From contig JAPEUG010000054.1 in assembly GCA_026025795.1 (NCBI GenBank), positions 1-64,000 on the forward strand: a stretch of 64,000 bases of DNA, in the 5' to 3' direction. The translations under genes and the position numbers were made by a program. Positions 44,901-61,232 of this stretch are shown one piece after another. Each line of letters starts with the position of its first letter. Within the stretch, counting starts at the first letter, position 1. This DNA comes from Thelocarpon superellum (Eukaryota). The notes beneath the pieces are model-generated. The model saw nothing but the letters and a program-made list of their open reading frames with translations, was not told the DNA's origin and did not search any database.

Positions 44901-45582
44901 GTGCACCGAGGAAGAGGGGGTCCTGGTACCGGGCCCGCAATCCCTGGGTCGGGCGGTACGTCCGTCGCCCTCGAGGGGATTTTCGACGCTGACGCGCGCG
45001 TCGACCGGGGACCCCCGGTCGCCGAACTCGCACCGCGGGCACCATCTTGGCCGCACCACGAGCGACCAACCTTAGCTATCCGAAGAATCCTCTCCAACAT
45101 CCCTTCCCCGTCCCCCAGTCCCGACGGAGGCGAAAAGGCTGTTCCGGTTCAGGGCACAACCATGTTGCGTTTGCTGCCTGCTTCCGGCATGGTGGCACAG
45201 CACCGTCTGCCTTAGCGGATCTACACGTGGGGCGTCCCTATAGCATCGCAGTCCATGCGGCGGGTCGAGGCCCACGTCCATTGCTGTGGGCCGTGACCCC
45301 TCCGCCCTTCGGCATTGGTCTGATCTCATGCGCAAGATGGACGTTGTATATAGTTCCGTCAGCTCAATTGTTCTGGTCAAAGGACAGCACCATGTCGCGA
45401 GAGCATCGCGGCGTGTTACTCCCTCTGTCATTCACTTCATGGGTGCCGGAGTCCTACGTCCTGTGGCCTTAGTCCCCGGGATCAGATCTCCCATGTCGTC
45501 CACCTCGTCCCTCTTGGCCTCCTTGTGCTGTGCGAGCTTCCCATCCTCTGTGCCTTCGTTGTCCGGAGCTATTCCCTCACTC

Positions 45583-45621
45583 TCGCCATCGCCCTCGCCC
45601 TCGCCCTCGCCCTCGCCATCG
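45583..45621. repeat. Imperfect (TCGCCC)n hexamer repeat just upstream of the NOS start
   Basis: About six copies visible in the sequence. Confidence 0.85.
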
Positions 45622-45644
45622 TCTCTACCACGCCTGTGCCTACG

Positions 45645-48600
45645 ATGCCGCATCCGCACGCGCAGCTGACAACGAGCAACATGCCCGGCCTGACCCACCT
45701 GAGTACCACCACGAAATGCCCAGCGTTGACCCCCGAGTTACAACGCATCCAGGACAGTCACGCCGTCCTTGCCTCCACCGGTTGCTCCGCGAAATTCTGT
45801 CAAGCGGGTCGTGCGGTCCACACAGATGAACCCCGCGTCGGCGAAAACCGTACCCTAGCCGCCGTGCTGCAGGAAGCCGAAGAGTTTCTACGCGACCTCC
45901 ACCGTGACGGTGTTTTACCTTCCGACGACGCCCTGACCGCGCGTCTCCAACATGTCCGCGAGGAGATATGCCTGGGTGCCATCGACGGCCTCAGTCGACA
46001 GGATCAAGTACAATGCGAGCTGGGCGGAAACTGGACGCAAACTCCCCAAGAACTCGAGTTTGGTCTCCGTCGCGCCTGGCGGAATGCGAGGAAGTGCATC
46101 ATGCGGTCCCACACAGAAGAGCTCAAGTGAGTTGCCTCGCGTCGGCGATCGTGTCCCTACCCGCATTGGCCACCGATGAGGGCGCCAGGCTGATTGCATC
46201 TCTAGGCTCTGCGACTTGCGTCACGTCAACACCAGCGCTGGCATGGCCCGGGCGTTGATCGACGGCATGGTACAGGCCTTCAATGGCGGCACCATTCAGC
46301 CCACCGGTGCGTCGGCCCTTTCAGCTCTGCATCCGGTGGGGGACAAGCGGATGATGGCTGACCTTGTCCGCTAGTTTTTGTCTTTCCGCCCCGCACCCCC
46401 AATAGCCGTGGACCTATGATCTGGAACCATCAGATCCTCGCCTTCGCCGGGGTAAGGGCCTACGTCGCTCGTGCAACCCCATATCAGAGTGCCGCTAACA
46501 GGGGTGATGCAGTATCAAACCGACGACGGCTCAGTGCTTGGTGATCCGAAGAATGTTGAGCTGACCAACTCCTTCATCGAGCTCGGCTGGCTGCCCCCGA
46601 AAAGCCGCAGCCGCTGGGACCTCTTGCCTCTCGTTACCATGGCTGAAGGGGATCTCCCCGTCATCGCCGAGCTACCTGCGAGTCTCCGCACGCTGGTCCC
46701 CATCCGCCACCCTCATTATGGCACCGCCTTCGAGGAGCTGGACCTGAAGTGGGTGCCGTTTCCGGCCTTGACCCGACTCGGCTTCGATATTGGCGGCGTG
46801 CAATACACTGCCGCTCCATTCGTCGGCTGGTATGCTTCCCTCGTCACATCTCCGCCCTGGACTGACTGAGTGCCCCGTACAGGTTCATGGACGCCGAAAT
46901 CGGAGTGCGTAACCTGGGCGACACGAGTCGCTATAACGTCTTACCAGATGTTGTCCGCGTCTTGGGCCTGACGGACGGGAAGCTCGAAGGTGGCGTCGAG
47001 GGCTTCGACGATCTGCCCGAGTATGAGCGACTCATGATGCTGTCACGGGCCCAAGCCGAGCTCAACTACGCCGTGCATTGGTCCTTTCTCCGCGCCGGCG
47101 TGAGCATGTCGGACTCGATGACAGCCTCGACCAAGTGGATTCGCTACGACGACGCCTTCCAAAAGAAGCACGGCTATCGACTGCCGTCAGATCCATACTG
47201 GCTCGCCCCCCCGCAGGGTTCGATCATCCCACTTTGGCACCGCGGCGCCGCGCCGAACTACCAGCCCAAACCTTTGATCGCGCGGCACGTCGAGGACCCG
47301 ATCAAGGCGTGGGGACGCGAGAAGGACGCCTGGTCCGTCTTCACCACACCCTGTCGCACGCTCCCGACGCGGCCGGAAGCGGGCGACGCCACGAACCGCA
47401 TGAACGGTCGCCAGTCGGCGTCGACCGGCTTGAATGTGCGTGCGACGGGCCGGTCCAGTGTTCCGACTCGGGTCGTTCCGCGACTGCAGATTGGGGTGGA
47501 GCGTCATATTACTCGCTCACAGCCGAAGCCGAAGACCAAGATCGTGGTCCGCTTCTGCAGTGAGGGCACTATGGCGGAGAATCTTGCGGGCAAGCTACAT
47601 GGTCGCGTCCAAGAAATGATCAAGGCATCGGATCATGTGGACCTCTGTCCTCGCGTCGAGCCGCTCGACAATGTCGGCGCATCAGATCTCACGGCGGACA
47701 AGATCTTCCTCCTGGTGATCAGCTCCACTGGGCAAGGTGCCATACCCGCCAATGGATTGGCTTTTGCAGCGCTTTGCGGAACTCTTGCGTCAAAAGCCGT
47801 CTCGGACGGTAGCGAGTCCTTCCGATTCGACATCTTCGGCAACGGCGATAGCCGATACTCCACGACCTATAACGGTGGAGCCAGCAAGATGGCCGCTCAT
47901 CTCCGGTCCGTTGGAGGTGTGGCGCTGGCCGGTGGCCTCTTTGAAGGCGACACGGCGGCCCAGGGACTCCCCTTATCGGCACTGAACGCGTGGTGGGACA
48001 CGCTCAAATCCAGCCTGATGGACGTCGTGGGCAAAGGACTCCAAACGCCGAGCTCGAGCGGGAGCGCGAGTAGCAGTATGGGGAGCGGAACGGAGGGGGT
48101 CCTGAGCGATAGCGACACCTCCATGCTGAGCTCCCGATCGTCGGTCACGTCCTTGGACCGCTTCTTCCTCCGTGGACCGGAGCTCCTGTCGCACTTTCGC
48201 GACGCCGTCTTGGTCAAGACTTATCCCGCCGTGCCGCTCCGAGAGCAGGGATCGGTGCGGGTAACTCTGGACATTGGGCTGGAGTCCTACAAAGAGATGA
48301 GCTGCATTCAGATACTGCCGGTGACGTCCCCGGCAAAGGTGATGCGCGCCCTTGATGCGCTGTGTGTCAAGCCTTGGACGCCGGTGGAGCTTGGCTTGGA
48401 CGCGGCCAAGAATCCATCCTATGCTAGATTCTTGAGGGAATACGTGGATCTCGAGCAGCCGTTTGTGGGGATGAAGTGGTGGGACCAGCTCGACGTGAAC
48501 GCGCGCAAGCGTCTGGATCGGCAGACACTACGCGCACGACCGGTGCTGGAGGTGCTCGAACATCTCCAGGCACAGGACGTGCTCACCTACGCGCGATTCG

Positions 48601-49352
48601 ATGACGAGTTCCAGCGGGGGCTATGTCTAGATATGGCGGTCCTCCACCCACGCACCTACTCGGTCGCATCGTCGCTCCGGTTCCTCTGCGCGAATGGGAC
48701 ACACGGCTCCAGCAACAAGGTCGATGTGGTGGTCAAGGTACATCCGCAGGGACGATTCAGCAGCGTCTTCCTAAACGAGGCGTCGACTGGTGCATGTCTC
48801 CGATATCGCTTCGTCGATGGACATTCTGGTGACCGACTTCGACAAGACACGTCGGCGGCGCTCATCATCGTGGCGACAGGTGCCGGGTTTGGCCCGGTGC
48901 GGTGCCTGCTCCAACAACGCATCGCCGTGACACGGGAGCACTTGGCAGCGGGTGGTTCCCTCCCTTCGCGCAAGTCGGCCATCTCGCTCTTTCTCGGCCT
49001 GCGACGCTCCGACGTGGCCATGACGATCCCCGTGGTGCGCGAAGCGTCGTCGTTGAACCTCATCGACATGCTTTCCATCGTGCCGAGCAACGAGAACAAG
49101 ACCCGCGTGCACGACAAGGTGATGTCGGAGAAGTTTGCGTCACACGTGCGACGAAAGTTGTTCGATGGCCTGACGATGGTGTACGTCTGCACGAACCTGG
49201 ACGCGGCCAAGGCGATCGCAGCCGCATTTGATGTCTTGGTCGGCGGCAACGAGAAAGGCATGACAACGCCGTCGACGGCAGGCACCACTACGAAGAAGAT
49301 GAACAAGACGAAGATGATGTTGGGTGAACGATACATTGAGGAGGTCTTCTAG
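45645..49352 (+). CDS. NOS: Nitric oxide synthase-like protein (oxygenase + flavodoxin + FAD/NADPH reductase), ~1148 aa
   Basis: Exons 45645-46126, 46206-46306, 46375-46451, 46513-46829 and 46883-49352 splice in frame. Motifs: 'CSAKFC' (Cx4C), heme 'AWRNARKCIMR', 'WNHQILAFAGY', 'LGDP', 'PFVGWFMDAEIGVRNL', 'DPYWLAPP', FMN 'SSTGQG..PANG' and 'FGNGDSRY', FAD 'PRTYSVASS', NADPH 'ATGAGFGP' and 'YVC', C-terminus 'RYIEEVF'. The start codon is uncertain (45645 or 45681). Confidence 0.93.
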
Positions 49353-50135: not shown

Positions 50136-51148
50136 CTAGGATGTTCCAAGCGCCGCCATGCGCTGGAAGCAGTTGGCATAAGCCACGTGCACCTCGGGCA
50201 CCTCGAAGTGATACTCCTTCAACTTCGTCACTAGCTTGGTGGTGTCGAGCTCGCAATTGCTGCGGCCAGCCTTGAGGATCTTGCTCTGTTCCTCGAGTGA
50301 GAAGTTCTTCCACGTGAAGCTCGGTCGGACGTATTGCTTGAAAAGCGCCAGCACCTCGTTGTGCGAGATGGCGCCCGGGTTGGTGAAGTTGTACACCCCG
50401 ATCTCCTTGTGCTCGGCCATCAAGATCGAGGCCGGGAGCAGGTCGTGCAGGATCGTGTTGGAGTTGGGCACGTCCACCACGCGTTCGTACTTGGCGATCT
50501 TTGTCACAAACGAGCGCGGGTGGAGGTCGTCCGATACCGGCATGCGCAGCCTCAGGATGAGACAGTTCGAATACGTCTGCATGATCTGTTTTGCGTGTCA
50601 GGCTCGATGCTCCTGGCTGGCCACGGGCCGATGACCCCTACCTCTTCCACCTTGGATTTGGTGGCGGAGTAGTACGAGCCGGCGAAATTGGCCGGGTCCG
50701 TTTCCACGTAGCCCGGCCCTCCGATCGGATGCTTGTCGTCATAGGCATAGATGCCTGCCAGGTTCCTGTCAGCAATCGAGATGGACGTCCACGGACGGAT
50801 GGGATGGCTTCTCGACTGACAGCCCGTTGCAAAGACGGTGATGTGGATATTCTTCAGAAAACAGCAGTCCGTCAGGTTCAGCGTGCCAATGACATTGCTC
50901 CGAACCGTGGCCTCCTTGTTGTCCTCGCACCAGTCGACATTGGGCCGGCCGGTGCAGCCAGCACAGTTGAGCACATGCGTGGGCTTCACTCGCTCGAGCT
51001 CGGCCAAGACCGACTCGCGGTTCTCCATCCGCACGGTCGTCGAGTGCACCGTCTCGCCTTGTTTGGTCAAGAGCTCCTTGAGGTGGCCAGCCACCCACCC
51101 TGCACCACCCCAAATCAGGAAGATATTGCCTTTGGACGAATCGACCAT
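50136..51148 (-). CDS. Nucleotide-rhamnose synthase / UDP-4-keto-6-deoxyglucose 3,5-epimerase-4-reductase (NRS/ER)
   Basis: 'FLIWGGAGWVAGHL', 'KPTHVLNCAGCTGRPNVDWCEDNKEATVRSNVIGTLNL', 'ATGC|IYAYD', 'GSYYSATK', 'LRLRMPVSDDLHPRSFVTKI', 'YNFTNPGAISHNE', 'RSNCELDTTKL', matching the plant/fungal NRS/ER family. Two introns. Confidence 0.94.
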
Positions 51149-51667
51149 GGTGACAGCACTTCTGCGGAAATGCCCAAAAGGAGGAGACGAAAAATCGGTC
51201 GGCGGACTCGACTCTGGTGCAGGAGAGTCGTGGCAGCCCCCCCGCTACCGAGCGGGACAGCGTCGTCAGGCGAACGAGAACCCCACGCCGGTACCCCTAA
51301 CGACCCGTACCCGTGCCTGAAAGCATGGGTGAAGGCCGCCCCACGCCAGCGACCGACGCCGGACGCAGCACAGGCGCCAAGCCAAGGCTAATAATAATAA
51401 TGGCATGGGGTGCTCGCCTTCTCACCCCCGGGCTCTCACACCTCTGAAACCAGCAGCATGGCGACCGTGTTCGTACTCGTGCTACAGGCCCACGCTCCCT
51501 ACACCGGTGAGTGGATCGCATGAAATCGTCACGTATCTCTTCGCCGTTGGAAAGGCGTCCGCACTCGAGCCAGTCGTCGACATTGTCACGCCTCACTCCT
51601 CCATACCCATGTGGCGAGCGCACACTGGCACAGCGACGCGGGTGCTACACTCGAAAGGGGCCCAACT

Positions 51668-52798
51668 ATGAGCGGGCTGCCCACGACCCACGAGTCTTCA
51701 TGGCGCCAGTCCTTTCAGTCGACCCTGGCGCTGGCGTCCATGGGGATGAAGAAACCCCGCTTCTACATCGCCGCCACCGTCGGTGCGCTGCTGCTCCTCT
51801 TGTTGTATGTCGCAGCCAGGCCAGGCCCATGTCCCGCGTCTGCCGCGAGCAGCCACTGACCGCAAAGCAGTTGGACCATACACACGTCCGACACCTCTCT
51901 GGCCGAACTCGAAGTGCCATCGGTGACGCTGGACTTTCATTCGTCGCCCTTCAATAGCAGCAGGCTGGCGCTGCTGGTGGAGAACCGGAAGATGCCCAAT
52001 CTGGTGCCGCTGATGCTGCACATGATGTCGGTCGTGCCGCCAGAATGGCGGTTCAACTTCATGGGCTCGGAGGAGTCGGTGGCACAAATGAACGGCTCGG
52101 CCGCCATCCGACGGCACGTGAGCAGCGGCAAGCTCGACCTGACCCTCGTGCCATCCAACATGAGCGTCGCGAGTGCAGAGGAGATCAGCCAGTTCTTCAC
52201 CACGCTGTGGCTGTACGACACGGTGCTGGCGCCGGCCGAGCACCTCTTTGTCTTCCAGACCGACAGTGAGTGCGACCTCTCCTCCGCTCGTCCGGCCGCG
52301 AGGCAGACGCTGATCCACAATGCACCAGGTATCCTCTGCGCCAACAGCGAGCAGAGCCTGAACGACTGGATCGATTACGACTGGATCGGGGCGCCATGGA
52401 TGCCAGAAGACCGATGGGGCGGCAACGGCGGCCTCTCCCTGCGACGAGTGAGCGCGATCAAGGAGATTCTGCAGCACCAAGAACGGCGAGTCGACTCGCA
52501 GGCCGAGGACGGCTGGCTCAGCGACCGACTTGCGGCGCGACCCGGCGCGCGCGTTGCCAACGCGAGCGAATCCGGCCGCTTCTCCAGCGAAACGCTCTTC
52601 AGCGAGCGACCGATGGCCTACCACATTGGCGGCTCGGGCACGATGATGCCCGCCGCCTTGCACCCCAAGAAGAACCGGCAGCAGATCTACGAGTACTGTC
52701 CCGAGTTCAAGCTGATCTTGGAGGTCATGGATGTCGATGGCCGCATCCCCGAGGGATGCGCCCTGGGAGACACGCATTTTGATGACGGATCGTATTAG
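51668..52798 (+). CDS. DUF5672 family type II membrane protein (putative glycosyltransferase), copy 1
   Basis: N-terminal TM 'FYIAATVGALLLLLFW' across intron 51805-51870. Motifs 'ALLVENR', 'VPPEWRF', 'FVFQTDS|ILCANS', 'YDWIGAPW', 'GGNGGLSLRR', 'EDGW', 'YCPEFKLI'. Confidence 0.85.
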
Positions 52799-55349: not shown

Positions 55350-56819
55350 ATGATGAGCGCGGAATATCCTGCTGGCATGTACCATCAGTCTCCTCGACGA
55401 GGCGACTTTGCGCTGACTAGCGGGCGGTTCAGCGGCGGGGCCGAATGGTGGCGGCAGCCATCTCGCGGTGGAAGGGTCGGTGCTGAAAGGCACCACCCAG
55501 TTCGAGCCGCTGCCGGAAGTTAAGAACATCATGGTCACGGGCGGCGCGGGCTTCATGTACGACACCCCCCGACCATGCTCCAGATCAGATCCAGATCCAG
55601 AATCAAATCGTCGGCGTTCCGGGCGACCTTGATCGATCGCTGCTCGGGACGGACTCGTGCTAATAGCGCTGCCTCCAATTAGTGCGAGCTGGGTGGTGAG
55701 GCACCTGGTGCTCACTTATCCCCATGCCTACAAAGTGGTTTCGTTCGACAACCTGGACTATTGCTCTTCGCTGAATAACACGCGAATGCTGGACACTCGC
55801 AAGAACTTTGCCTTCTTCCACGGGGATATCAAGCGGTCCGAGGACGTGGTGCGGTGCATCAAGATGCACGAGATCGATACCATCATGCATTTTGCGGCGC
55901 AGTCGCACGTCGACCTGAGCTTTGGCAACTCCTATCGCTTCACCAGCAACAATGTGTACGGCACGCACGTGCTGCTGGAGTGCGCCAAGGAGATGAAGAT
56001 CCGCCGATTCATCCATGTCTCTACGGATGAGGTCTACGGCGAGATCGATGACCAAGATGAGGATCCGATGGAGAGCAGCCTGCTGGCTCCCACCAACCCC
56101 TATGCCGCCAGTAAAGCGGCGGCGGAGATGCTGGTGAATGCGTACTGGAAGAGCTTCAAGCTGCCGGTGATCACGGTGCGGAGCAACAATGTATATGGGC
56201 CCCACCAGTTTCCCGAGAGTAAGCCTGTCCTTCCCTCCTTCTCTTCTGTCCCCCTCGCCTTTGCTCTTGAGCTCCCATCCTCGCCGTCGCCATGGCCTGA
56301 TGTCTGACCGGTGTGGCAGAGGTGATTCCCAAGTTTGCCTGCCTGCTACAACGGGGCTCGCCCTTGATCCTCCATGGTGATGGCAAACACACGCGGCGCT
56401 ATCTTTACGCGAGCGATGCGGCAGATGCCTTTGACACGGTCTTGCACCGCGGCTGCCTCGGCCAGATTTACAACGTGGGCTCGCGCGACGAGATCTCCAA
56501 CTTGCAGCTCTGCTCTGAAGTGCTCCGTCTCTTCCACCTGCCGCACGACACAGAGGAGGAGCGGGCCAAGTGGATCACGCACTCGCGCGATCGGCCCTTC
56601 AACGACCGACGCTACGCAGTGAACGCGACGAAGCTACATCAGCTCGGATGGGAGCAGAAGGTCTCCTTTGCCGAGGGACTCGAGACGACGGTCGCGTGGT
56701 ACCGGCTTTATGGGCAGAGTTGGTGGGGCGATATTCGGAATGTCTTGGTCCCCTTCTCCTACGTCGCAGATAAGAAGGTGGTCTCCGAGGACGAGGGCGT
56801 GGATATTCCATGTCCATGA
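55350..56819 (+). CDS. UDP-glucose 4,6-dehydratase (RmlB/RHM N-terminal type)
   Basis: 'NIMVTGGAGF|IASW', 'DNLDYCSSL', 'HFAAQSHVDLSFGNS', 'HVSTDEVYG', 'PTNPYAASKA', 'RSNNVYGPHQFPE|KVIPKF', 'DRPFNDRRY'. Confidence 0.94.
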
Positions 56820-58064: not shown

Positions 58065-59160
58065 ATGTTGCCGGGAATCTTGTCCCGGGGCGACCAGCAC
58101 ACGCTCTGGATCTATCTATCCACTTTGGCCCTGGTGTAGGTGACCTCTGATCGAGCGTTGCCCGCGCACGAGACGAGATGGCATGGCGCTGATGCACCGA
58201 CCGCACAGATGGCTGTTTGCCGCCCTCCTCCCCTCGCCCTCGAGCACAACCCACATGATCCAGCAAATCCTCCCCTCGGTCCGGGTCGACTTCCATCCCT
58301 CGCGCTCGCCCTACAATGAATCGAAACTGGGCCTGATGGTGGACAGCCGGCCGCTGCCGCAACTGGCACCGTTGTTGTTGCACATGATGTCGGTGGCGGG
58401 CCCCGACTGGAGGTTTCTGTTCCTAGGCTCCAACGAGAGTGTGGCGCTCGTCAACACCAGCTTTGCCGTGCGCCAACAGCTCGAGGCCGGTCGACTGTCG
58501 CTGCGAGAGATGCCTGAGGAGAACGTGACAACGAGCCAGGAGCAGTACAGCCAGCTGTTCACCAACCTAGCCTTCTACGAGAGCCTTCTCCCGGCCGAGT
58601 TCTTGTGGGTCTTTCATGCCGACAGCGTCATCTGCGCCAACTCGGAGCAGAATCTCGACGATTGGCTAGAATACGACTGGGTCGGCGCGCCATGGTATGT
58701 GACGAGGACTGCGACTCGCTGTGGCCTCGCCTCTTCGATACAACGGGGAGACTGACGCACTTTCGGCAGGGACGAATCCAAAAGCGTTTCGTGGAACACG
58801 CGCAAAGGAAACATGCCAGGCGGCGATGGCGGATTCTCACTGCGGCGCATCTCGCGCGTCATGGAAGTCCTACGCTTCCAAACCCGGTACGTGGAGGACA
58901 TCGATCCAGAGGACGAGTGGCTGGCGGCGCGCATCGGCAATTTGCCCAATGCCAAGATGGCCTCGCCGAATGATGAGCGGCGGTTCTGCGTAGAGGATCA
59001 GTGGTATGAGCAGCCCATGGGCTATCACCTGGGCCGCGTGCTGGAAGCCAGCGGTGATCCTATCTGGAACGATCCCCAACGACGACGCGCCATCTTTGAC
59101 TATTGTCCCGAGGTCAAGATGGTCCTGCCCATGGTGAAAGTCAACCGCACGTGTTTCTAA
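58065..59160 (+). CDS. DUF5672 family type II membrane protein (putative glycosyltransferase), copy 2
   Basis: TM 'TLWIYLSTLALV|WLFAALL' across intron 58136-58208. Motifs 'PLLLHMMSVAGPDWRFLFLGS', 'VFHADSVICANSEQNLDDWLEYDWVGAPW', 'GGDGGFSLRR', 'EDEW', 'PMGYH', 'YCPEVKM'. Second intron 58695-58769. Extra 5' exons from ~57748 are possible. Confidence 0.85.
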
Positions 59161-59298: not shown

Positions 59299-61232
59299 TC
59301 ATCTTCCGTGCCGCCAAATAGCATCAGCCATCTTAACCACCTGCGCCATGTGCGCGACGTCATGGACGCGCACGATGTCCGCGCCGCCAGCCACCGCGGC
59401 GCTGATGGCAGCCGCAGTACCCCAGATGCGATCCCTGGGCTCCGCGACGCCCGTGATCCTCCCAATGAAGGCCTTGCGACTGGGTCCCACCAGCCACGGC
59501 AAGCCCTGTAGGCCTGACCAGTCGCGCAGGAGGTGGAGGTCGCGTAGCAGCTCGAGGTTCTGCGCCTGCGTCTTGGCGAACCCGATGCCCGGATCAACGA
59601 GGATGCGCCATCGTCGTATGCCTGCCGCCTCCGCGGCTTGGACTCGTGCGGAGAGCTCGCGCGCCACGGTAGGGACGATCCCCTCGGGATATTGCGTCAG
59701 TTGCGTCATGGTGCTCGGTGTTCCCCGCATGTGCGTCAGGCATATGGACGCGCCTAGCTTGGCGACCGTCGCGAGCATCGCGCGGTCCAGCGTGCCGCCC
59801 GAGACGTCGTTGACCAGGTCCGCACCGGCGCCGACGGCCTCCGCCGCGACCCGCGCCCGGTAGGTGTCGATGCTGATGCAGAGAGGACGGGTTCGCGCTG
59901 CGGATCGCAATGCCCGAATCATGGGTACGGTGCGGCGAAGTTCTTCCTCTTCACTGACCTCCATCGCACCTGGTTTGCTCGACTGCCCGCCGACGTCGAC
60001 GATCGTGGCGCCAGTGACGTCGAGTAGCTCCATCGTGCTGCTGGCCAGGGCATCCACGTCCACGTTGAAATTATCGCCGCCGTCAGAGAAGGAGTCAGGC
60101 GTGACGTTCACAATTGCCATGACTTGCGTCGAACGGTTTTCCGCTAGAGGAGTCAGGGGTGGTAATGATGGAGAAACAGGCGTAAGTGTCGATGTAGCGG
60201 ACTCAGAACCTGGTAGAGACTGTAAAGTGGTTTGAAAGGTTGTCAATGGGTGCGGCGAGGGGTGGAAGCCGTTCGGAATAAGGCTGCCTGGTCAGTCCTA
60301 ATCCTGCCCTGCGACAAGGTGTTACTTACTCGCAGAGTGGACGAAGGACGAATTCTCGCTCCAGCATCAGCGGATGCGGGATTGTGAGCCTTGAGTGCTG
60401 CATGGAAAGGTGGTCATAGAGCAAGATATCCAAGTCGATGTTCCGAGGGCCTTTATCAACCACTTTCTGCCGACCCATATGCCGTTCGATGTCTTGAAGC
60501 TCTTCAAGCAGCTCCAGAGGGCTCAGCTCCGTTGTAATCTAATTGTCACCGCGTTAGACGCACCGCGGGCCACCGTGTACCATCGACTTCTATTTCGACT
60601 AACCTCACCAACACCATTTACAAACGGAGCTTGATCGACGACGTACATGGCCTCGGTTTCGTATAACGAGCTGGTCCGGGCCAGCGCAATTCCTCGTCGT
60701 TCCATCTCACGACATGCCCGTTCAATCATCGCAATCCGATCTCCCTCATTGCTTCCTAGGCCTATGAAGGCCCGTGCTTTTGGTGTGGATGAGGTGGTAT
60801 CATTGTTGGCGGCTGAGGTGGGCAAGGGTCTTCTCGCGGCCACCCCGGAGGATTTCCTGTCGTGTGCGACTGATTCCGTACAAATTGGCCACCTTCTAGA
60901 ATGTTGAGGGATCTGCAATAAGGGTTCATCTCGATAGAGTGCCGCGTGTCTGGAGCACAAACGTCAGCGAATTGAAACACCGCTACGCACAATGGCGGGC
61001 TAAGCAGATTGACATACGAGCAAGAGCCTTCCCCGCCGCTCTTTTCGGCTTCGCGATAGTCAGCTGTGTGTTTCAACGATGACACGCTTAGACATGATTG
61101 GCTTCCAGGCAAAGCTAAGCTACGTCCTGGTCTGAGCAGTGCGCGCCGGCGCTCTGTGTGGAAGGATGAATGTGGCCAGAGCTCGAATGAGCGACGCAGA
61201 GACCATCGCAAGAGCAGTGGAAACTCGAGCAT
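59299..61232 (-). CDS. FOL1: Folate synthesis protein, bifunctional HPPK-DHPS with probable mitochondrial presequence
   Basis: HPPK 'AFIGLGSNEGDR', 'SSLYETEAMY', 'GPRNIDLDILLY', 'IPHPLMLEREFVLRPL'. DHPS 'NVTPDSFSDGG', 'ISIDTYRA', 'NDVSGG', 'HMRGTP', 'DPGIGFAK', 'SRKAFIG', 'VRVHDV'. Intron 61017-60950 joins an Arg-rich first exon in phase. Confidence 0.93.

Follow-up and report, generated by a model that had tools for sequence, protein, structure and literature searches.

A nitric oxide synthase-type gene of a fungal family in the ascomycete Thelocarpon superellum

Introduction

Mammalian nitric oxide synthases (NOS; nNOS, iNOS and eNOS) carry an oxygenase domain, a flavin mononucleotide (FMN) domain and a flavin adenine dinucleotide (FAD)/nicotinamide adenine dinucleotide phosphate (NADPH) module, in this order, together with a Cx4C motif, a heme-binding Cys, a conserved Trp, a substrate Glu and a pterin-stacking Trp. 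Bacterial stand-alone NOS proteins have no fused reductase, as part of PMC4948021 states. Cyanobacterial syNOS (PDB 9q05), a longer protein of 1468 amino acids (aa), possesses a globin domain according to part of PMC7400543. Here we compare with these systems a NOS-type gene of Thelocarpon superellum, a fungus of a lichen-rich group, placed by NCBI taxonomy in Ascomycota, Pezizomycotina, Thelocarpales. The gene is intact, has five exons and occupies 45645..49352 on the + strand of the stretch analysed (the window: 64,000 nucleotides (nt), positions 1 to 64,000 of contig JAPEUG010000054.1, assembly GCA_026025795.1). All the mammalian features listed above recur in its product.

Part of a 2024 review (PMC10889981) describes the production of nitric oxide (NO) from arginine in fungi as still unresolved. 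The same part lists NOS genes identified in Shiraia, Macrophomina and Inonotus, and activity reported for cloned 'iNOSL' (Inonotus, Shiraia). In the portion of PMC4160249 (2014) that bears on this, NOS sequences are given for Macrophomina (split in two open reading frames, ORFs), Neofusicoccum, Colletotrichum gloeosporioides, Glomerella graminicola and Aspergillus oryzae, with mention of A. flavus and A. niger. A portion of PMC7400543 (2020) includes fungal NOS in a domain comparison. On the genetic side, passages of PMC4948021 report that NO was unchanged in Neurospora knockouts of 'NOS-like' genes, and that the model fungi used for 'NOS-like' knockouts had no true oxygenase-domain NOS or remained without a phenotype. 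We found no report of a NOS gene in lichen fungi in the open-access literature.

A first-pass annotation of the window, made by a model from the letters alone, had proposed a full-length, intron-containing NOS-like gene and had called such genes patchy and poorly characterised in fungi; the latter agrees with what the 2024 review says in the part cited (PMC10889981). It overstated the novelty of the gene. The family is named 'nitric-oxide synthase (NADPH)' by NCBI and UniRef in dozens of ascomycetes, it figures in the papers of 2014 and 2020, and the T. superellum protein itself is deposited. On sequence grounds, the locus is a further member of a monophyletic, database-annotated fungal NOS family and is not new in kind.

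Results

The NOS-like peptide is spread over four frame pieces in the + strand stop-to-stop ORFs at 45.3-49.4 kb. Splicing joins these into a coding sequence of 3447 nt that runs from an ATG at 45645 to a stop codon at 49350-49352 and encodes 1148 aa plus stop, with no internal stops (Table 1). All introns are GT..AG, with no length a multiple of 3, and CTGAC/CTAAC-like branch sites are present in three of the four. The first-pass annotation had claimed an intact spliced frame of about 1148 aa with four spliceosomal introns; both claims held, with 1148 codons plus stop and every feature where it had been placed. GenBank already contains this protein, from a contig of 64,946 nt, under the title 'MAG: hypothetical protein M1838_004689 [Thelocarpon superellum]' (P0001; 1136 aa), unlike those relatives that are named NOS. 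P0001 equals the gene model, letter for letter, minus the first 12 residues, its start being the alternative Met at 45681. An independent annotation has therefore used the same four introns and the second Met. Residue numbers refer to the 1148-aa model unless marked P0001 (model minus 12). Against the intron-free B. subtilis NOS, all four junctions are ungapped in the spliced protein (phmmer), and intron 3 must be removed because its 61 nt would shift the frame. Directly upstream of the start codon (45575-45625, +), a GCCCTC-like hexamer is repeated over a short run that reads P-S-P-S or A-L-A-L depending on the frame.

The oxygenase domain is recognised by sequence and by fold. Pfam NO_synthase (PF02898) is colinear across the exons (profile 5-72, 77-108, 135-236 and 238-352), scoring 33, 98.3 and 56.8 bits for exons 1, 4 and 5 against a cut-off of 22.7; exon 3 alone (25 aa) gave no PF02898 match. 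A phmmer search of PDB sequences with P0001 found 83 distinct NOS chains at E <=1e-3, the best being B. subtilis NOS (2.1e-61, 211 bits, P0001 residues 111-435); nNOS and iNOS came next with ~205 bits. The heme domain of the AlphaFold2 (AF2) model matches nNOS heme domains in Foldseek with a target-normalised template-modelling (TM) score of ~0.8 at 29-32% identity. The full-length model has a mean predicted local distance difference test (pLDDT) of 75.3 and a predicted TM score (pTM) of 0.52. The three motifs read in the first pass, CSAKFC (residue 47), WRNARKC (145) and WFMDAEIG (326), are all present.

Catalytic residues were compared across the wider family. A scan of 1.84 billion representatives yielded 1601 proteins at E <=1e-3, 370 of them at E <=1e-30. 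Among 261 proteins taken further, 250 matched the oxygenase query and 130 had near-complete domains; two of these, shorter than 290 aa, were dropped, leaving 128 aligned. We use "type A" for the fungal NOS family that holds the window protein and "type B" for a lineage from Rhizoctonia solani, Ceratobasidium and Dendrothele. The column comparison set 54 type-A rows against 74 other NOS rows. Type A keeps the consensus at 52 of the 62 columns that are >=90% conserved in the other NOS. The heme ligand Cys151 is invariant (54/54 type A, 74/74 others), with Trp145 (six before the Cys), Arg146 and Asn147 kept. Position 331 is Glu in 53/54 type-A and 74/74 other rows. The consensus is also kept at Arg335 (52/54), Arg342 and Tyr343, and Trp432 (54/54) and Gln214 (50/54) are retained. 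We take the positions of Gln214, Phe327 and Arg308 to be equivalent to the Gln, Tyr and Asn/Asp of nNOS that contact the amino-acid end of L-arginine.

C47 and C52 are invariant in all 30 diverse family members, and a profile search aligns the pair with the C-x4-C of seven other eukaryote-type NOS. This motif is predicted to be of the zinc-tetrathiolate type found at the dimer interface. A homodimer prediction (two copies of residues 20-455, two heme and Zn) scored 0.00 with an uncertain partner fold, and speaks neither for nor against dimerisation.

The reductase half is more divergent. The profile hidden Markov model searches that the first-pass annotation had proposed gave a split result: NO_synthase and Flavodoxin_1 (33.5 bits against a cut-off of 25, in exon 5) passed, NAD_binding_1 stayed below threshold and FAD_binding_1 had no match. 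FAD_binding_6 appeared only below threshold (E 0.09-0.24), and phmmer matched full-length nNOS through the oxygenase domain alone, the reductase being too divergent. The ferredoxin-NADP+ reductase (FNR)-type module that the first pass had read from the letters was recovered by family profile and fold comparison. A profile of 32 reductase parts (A1), run against PDB, matched (i) NADPH-cytochrome P450 reductase (CPR) at E 8e-22, in one stretch from the FMN domain to R-x-Y-S and a second over the NADPH part; (ii) the syNOS reductase at 7.8e-18, in a single stretch; (iii) the P450-BM3 reductase at 4e-17 and (iv) the nNOS reductase at 3e-15. The AF2 model of 47490-49349 (pLDDT 78.7, pTM 0.67) matches the rat nNOS reductase (1tll_A; E 7.9e-24, TM 0.51) and likewise CPR, BM3 and syNOS, over 660-690 columns. 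S919 (R-T-Y-S), G992 and G994 (T-G-A-G-F-G-P), D1036 (G-L-R-R-S-D here) and C1095 are each present in 30/30 family members. For the FMN domain, the 30-sequence alignment shows a conserved G-N-G-D-S-R-Y loop, and the first loop reads C-S-x-G-T, compared with S-Q-T-G-T in CPR. By profile and predicted fold, the FAD/NADPH module is divergent but complete, of the CPR type and fused to the oxygenase and FMN domains. The FAD/NAD domain loss that has been reported for fungal NOS thus seems to be artefactual, a product of limited Pfam sensitivity.

The linker that joins the oxygenase domain to the FMN domain has ~75 columns with no majority residue in the 30-sequence family alignment (A2). No conserved amphipathic calmodulin-type helix is evident in this linker, either in the alignment or in the AF2 model. 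There is no C-terminal regulatory tail; the protein ends at an aromatic residue, and 21 of the 30 family members end exactly at ...E-E-V-F/Y. An nNOS-like protein (P0186) has RYYSISS, GTGIAPF, YVCGD and RYHEDIF followed by 34 more residues, in contrast to the window protein. From the linker without a conserved helix and the end at the FAD-stacking aromatic, we infer that the enzyme is calmodulin-independent; a degenerate or lineage-specific site is possible.

Set against described enzymes, the protein combines familiar and divergent parts. It shares fold and domain order with mammalian NOS, yet heme-domain identity is only ~30%, ten of the 62 near-universal columns are changed, and neither a conserved calmodulin helix nor a PDZ domain was seen. 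syNOS is the best full-length structural match (E 6.8e-48, ~1140 columns); it lies on the other side of the tree from type A, and Pfam found no globin domain in the window protein. B. subtilis NOS has, like the window protein, a bulky aliphatic residue at the 306 position (Leu here). Bacterial alignments begin at about P0001 105-111, after the Cx4C segment; the window protein has both this segment and the reductase. Bacterial and animal NOS score ~360 bits against each other, and type A scores ~210 against solved NOS. Type B (P0172, P0340, P0342-P0346) is also full-length fungal NOS and shares with type A the C-I-M-R-S after the heme Cys; P0172 is the best non-type-A match to the type-A N-terminal profile. 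Unlike type A, type B has FAD_binding_1 and NAD_binding_1 domains that Pfam recognises. Over 96% of its length, type B shows ~33% identity to animal iNOS.

The family is widespread in fungi. An exon 5 query matched 314 proteins at E <=1e-3 among 8000 scored candidates. Nearly all the named proteins in the best 120 are from lichen-forming fungi (Candelaria, Lignoscripta, Candelina, many Teloschistaceae, Cladonia, Lecanora, Icmadophila), a ranking that reflects similarity and database content and is not an enrichment test; Lepidopterella and the basidiomycetes Collybia nuda and C. sordida are also among them. A deeper member, P0126 (a Xylariomycetidae NOS), is 39% identical to P0001 over 98% of the query (E 3.7e-219). 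Used as query, P0126 found the family under the name 'nitric oxide synthase' in Colletotrichum, Apiospora, Aspergillus, Neofusicoccum, Zymoseptoria, Cercospora, Dothistroma, Venturia and Ophiocordyceps. Identity within the family is 38-56% over the full length across several classes of fungi, and this conservation speaks for selection and a working gene. The annotated type-A proteins (Colletotrichum/Glomerella, Aspergillus sections Flavi and Nigri, Neofusicoccum, Zymoseptoria, Cercospora, Ophiocordyceps and many Lecanoromycetes) have the architecture, Cx4C, heme and substrate residues, divergent reductase and ...EEVF ending of the window protein. They differ from the window gene only in species and intron pattern, with 0-3 of its introns and, in one case, an extra one.

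Phylogeny, another check proposed in the first pass, places type A in a clade of its own, apart from animal and bacterial-type sequences. In a FastTree tree of the 128 domains, the 54 type-A rows form one clade (support 100) on a stem of 0.86 changes per site. A quick IQ-TREE search (LG+C20) of 89 rows (26 type A, 6 type B, 6 animal, 2 bacterial anchors, 49 unnamed) recovers type A with a Shimodaira-Hasegawa-like approximate likelihood ratio (SH-aLRT) of 100 and a stem of 1.41, with animals (98) and bacterial-type sequences elsewhere. Type B is a separate clade (support 99), and two fungal NOS lineages are recognised from the sequences. A tree constrained to unite A and B had a log-likelihood 12.95 higher than the free quick search and a p-value of 0.765 in the approximately unbiased test, a result that is permissive only, as the group was named after the first tree. 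In this unrooted tree, the union of A and B would fit a history in which the gene descended vertically in fungi and type A then diverged fast. An origin by transfer from bacteria or animals was considered and rejected: type A is not nested in the animal or bacterial anchors, and the union with type B is not rejected.

The Collybia nuda and C. sordida genes (P0008, P0012, P0120) are type A and lie on contigs of 282-486 kb. They group with Thelocarpon, Candelaria and Lignoscripta, not outside the ascomycetes (81% support), and the window oxygenase domain is 74% identical to that of C. sordida, the highest value in the IQ-TREE tree. These genes may reflect transfer between phyla.

Relatives differ in which introns they have; interruptions recur, in different subsets, at or near the positions of introns 1, 2 and 4. 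Twenty-nine related loci came from a metagenome scan with A2, and 11 were mapped by tblastn. In three of them (L001, L006, L008), junctions 1, 3 and 4 are read through, ungapped over 13 residues, and junction 2 is interrupted. The insertion at intron 2 contains a stop in L001 and L006, yet tblastn reported a single uninterrupted match for each. The tblastn pieces of L002 and L005 break at residues 194/195 (intron 2) and overlap at 155-167, which puts the first interruption at or near intron 1. Five other loci (L012, L013, L014, L018 and L019) show breaks at residues 324-328, where intron 4 lies, and L012 has one more at residue 453. Intron 3 is common to none of the 11 mapped relatives and was seen in the window gene only.

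Pfam searches of 20 neighbouring ORFs found MutS, BRCT, a NIF phosphatase, two epimerase/dehydratases, two DUF5672 and a pterin-binding folate enzyme. Membership of a secondary-metabolite cluster was considered and set aside as unsupported: none of the 20 ORFs is a polyketide synthase (PKS), non-ribosomal peptide synthetase (NRPS) or cytochrome P450 (P450), and tblastx of the flanks against the 29 loci, only some of which have long flanks, gave no match at E 1e-8. The DUF5672 ORFs (51860-52798, +, E 2.5e-28; 58144-58755, +, E 1.4e-16) are interleaved with the NAD-dependent epimerase/dehydratase-like ORFs (50552-51244, -; 55633-56307, +), and the four may form a small sugar-modification neighbourhood. 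A Pterin_bind ORF of the dihydropteroate-synthase type (59299-60291, -, E 2.5e-76) lies 10 kb downstream of the NOS gene and probably represents coincidental folate metabolism.

Three DNA runs labelled as moss metagenome, from a second study (X2-X4), contain short, low-depth contigs over 45698-49174, mostly with 0-2 differing letters and in one case with 7. Two genomic pieces from that study run across introns 1 and 3 without change, which is what DNA should show. The near-identical pieces indicate that the same or a very close fungus was present in that material.

Table 1 Exons, introns, domains and key residues of the NOS-type gene (window positions; residues of the 1148-aa model)
Feature	Position	Strand	Description
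Exon 1	45645..46126	+	Codons 1-160 + 2 nt; Cx4C, oxygenase start, heme-thiolate Cys; Pfam NO_synthase profile 5-72
Intron 1	46127..46205	+	79 nt, GTGAGT..TAG, phase 2
Exon 2	46206..46306	+	Pfam NO_synthase profile 77-108
Intron 2	46307..46374	+	68 nt, GTGCGT..TAG, phase 1
Exon 3	46375..46451	+	25 aa; fills profile ~109-134; continuous with the B. subtilis NOS alignment
Intron 3	46452..46512	+	61 nt, GTAAGG..CAG, CTAAC branch-like site, phase 0
Exon 4	46513..46829	+	Oxygenase core; Pfam NO_synthase profile 135-236, E 5.8e-28
Intron 4	46830..46882	+	53 nt, GTATGC..CAG, phase 2, splits the Trp326 codon
Exon 5	46883..49352	+	822 codons + stop; oxygenase end, linker, FMN domain, hinge, FAD/NADPH module
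NOS oxygenase domain	45978..47291	+	Residues ~112-462, split by four introns; phmmer 211 bits to PDB NOS; Foldseek TM ~0.8
Cx4C motif C47-S-A-K-F-C52 (zinc tetrathiolate-type, predicted)	45783..45800	+	Both Cys in 30/30; aligned with eukaryote-type NOS C-x4-C
Cys151 codon, proximal heme thiolate ligand (predicted)	46095..46097	+	W-R-N-A-R-K-C; lines up with the heme Cys motif in B. subtilis NOS
Glu331 codon, guanidinium-binding Glu (predicted)	46896..46898	+	G-W-F-M-D-A-E-I-G; conservation across NOS
Linker, poorly conserved, predicted disordered	47292..47534	+	A2 consensus without majority residue; pLDDT <50 at P0001 465-472 and 477-528
Flavodoxin-like FMN domain	47535..48035	+	Residues ~544-710; Flavodoxin_1; profile match to CPR FMN domain; AF2 secondary structure
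Connecting + FAD + NADPH (FNR-type) module	48150..49349	+	R916-T-Y-S919, G992-A-G-F-G-P997, G-L-R-R-S-D1036, C1095; ends ...R-Y-I-E-E-V-F1148

Discussion

The first-pass annotation's central claim, a full-length NOS-like oxygenase fused to flavodoxin and FNR modules in an ascomycete, agrees with Pfam, PDB sequence and profile searches, predicted folds and phylogeny. We propose that the locus is a functional, single-copy-looking gene of T. superellum that encodes a self-sufficient, calmodulin-independent, NADPH-dependent NOS acting on arginine, and we give this explanation as a whole a probability of about 0.58. In such an enzyme NADPH would reduce FAD, and FAD would reduce FMN. The mobile FMN domain would pass electrons to the Cys151-ligated heme, probably that of the other subunit in a homodimer that a Zn(Cys)4 site holds together. 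O2 would be activated at the heme, which would oxidise a guanidino substrate held by Glu331, most likely L-arginine, which would be converted via N-hydroxy-arginine to citrulline and NO, with a reduced pterin stacked on Trp432. Control would be exerted by expression or substrate supply and not by Ca2+.

Several observations weigh against this proposal. Ten of the 62 near-universal columns are changed in type A (Y->W130, W->C/T157, H->G181, R->M209, W->M378, D->S380, H->S404, F->W411, E->F418, W->P430). At the pterin site, the second Trp, two upstream of W432, is Pro430 in 52/54 type-A rows and Trp in none of the 54, compared with Trp in 68/74 others. The substrate channel is lined by clade-specific residues at six positions: Leu306 (53/54; Val in 42 and Ile in 26 of the 74 others), Arg308 (50/54; Asn, Asp, Ser or Gly in others), 324 (Ile, Val, Met or Leu, with Ile/Val as the type-A signature; Asn in 65 and Ser in 9 others), Phe327 (50/54; Tyr in 61 and Phe in 13 others), Asp329 (52/54; mostly Gly in others) and Ala330 (53/54; Thr in others). 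Position 306 presumably lies above the heme, and we take the channel and pterin positions to be those linked in mammalian NOS to arginine contacts, NO release and pterin stacking. With these channel residues, neither specificity for arginine nor NO as the product can be regarded as secure. The AF2 pLDDT falls below 50 in three places, around Cx4C (P0001 35-48), in the loop with Glu331 (318-329) and in the pterin segment (418-445), for which the missing heme, pterin and partner subunit may be the cause; the model is thus uninformative on pocket geometry. In the reductase half, the FAD/NADPH module gives only 16-17 bits for NAD_binding_1 (E 0.009-0.02, cut-off 22) and nothing for FAD_binding_1, and a Thr is aligned to the aromatic of the second FMN loop of CPR, which presumably stacks on FMN. 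In the open-access literature we found no report of a purified type-A enzyme or a type-A knockout.

The pocket changes raise the prospect that the same fold and electron chain serve other chemistry, with another guanidino or amidine substrate or a product other than free NO. Nitroxyl, nitrite/nitrate or a nitrating or nitrosating species for metabolite biosynthesis, as in the use of a bacterial NOS for thaxtomin, come into view. The very long stem to the type-A clade in both trees, the low score to solved NOS relative to that between bacteria and animals, the channel residues and Pro430 would all fit. The residues that hold the guanidinium and heme are nevertheless all kept, and Phe at the 327 position also occurs among other NOS. 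A dedicated biosynthetic role finds no echo in the surroundings, as no PKS, NRPS or P450 gene adjoins in the window and the unmatched flanks do not indicate a conserved cluster. We regard other chemistry as unlikely, if still to be taken seriously. The Pfam scores just given would also fit a degenerate reductase that has lost its FAD and/or NADPH domain, as has been concluded from Pfam for fungal NOS, such that the protein needed an external reductase or were a heme/FMN protein only. This is improbable, given that profile and fold recover a complete diflavin reductase colinear with those of CPR, nNOS and syNOS and that conservation extends to the R-x-Y-S, G-x-G-x-x-P, G-L-R-R-S-D, V-C and terminal aromatic motifs. 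That the record is a metagenome-assembled genome could point to a pseudogene, an unexpressed relic or an assembly contaminant. We consider this most improbable: the 1148-codon frame is intact after four canonical introns of fungal size, catalytic residues are conserved, read depth is even (~150-230) along the gene in the likely source DNA run, neighbours such as MutS and BRCT are eukaryote-type and the nearest relatives are all fungal. The first pass had likewise argued against contamination, from the four introns and the fungal neighbours.

Returning to the preferred explanation, a self-sufficient NOS acting on arginine, one may tentatively go further. Type A could be a distinct, constitutively coupled class of NOS, calmodulin-independent and tail-less, with a reductase beyond Pfam recognition that has been wrongly scored as 'lost' and a remodelled substrate and pterin pocket (the Arg308/Asp329 pair, Phe327, Leu306 and Pro430). 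We hold this to be possible, with the odds against it.

What is gained here is evidence for the retention of the FAD/NADPH module in fungal NOS, a defined list of clade-specific pocket changes and the recognition of two fungal lineages. From the pocket changes and the missing animal regulatory elements one would predict that regulation differs and that substrates may be handled differently. As a broad, well-conserved family, the true fungal NOS include tractable species (Colletotrichum, Zymoseptoria, Aspergillus niger), so the arginine-to-NO question is directly testable there. Should type A prove to be a distinct class, filamentous ascomycetes would have in it their long-sought source of arginine-dependent NO, and in lichens it would be the enzyme responsible for NO release by the fungal partner.

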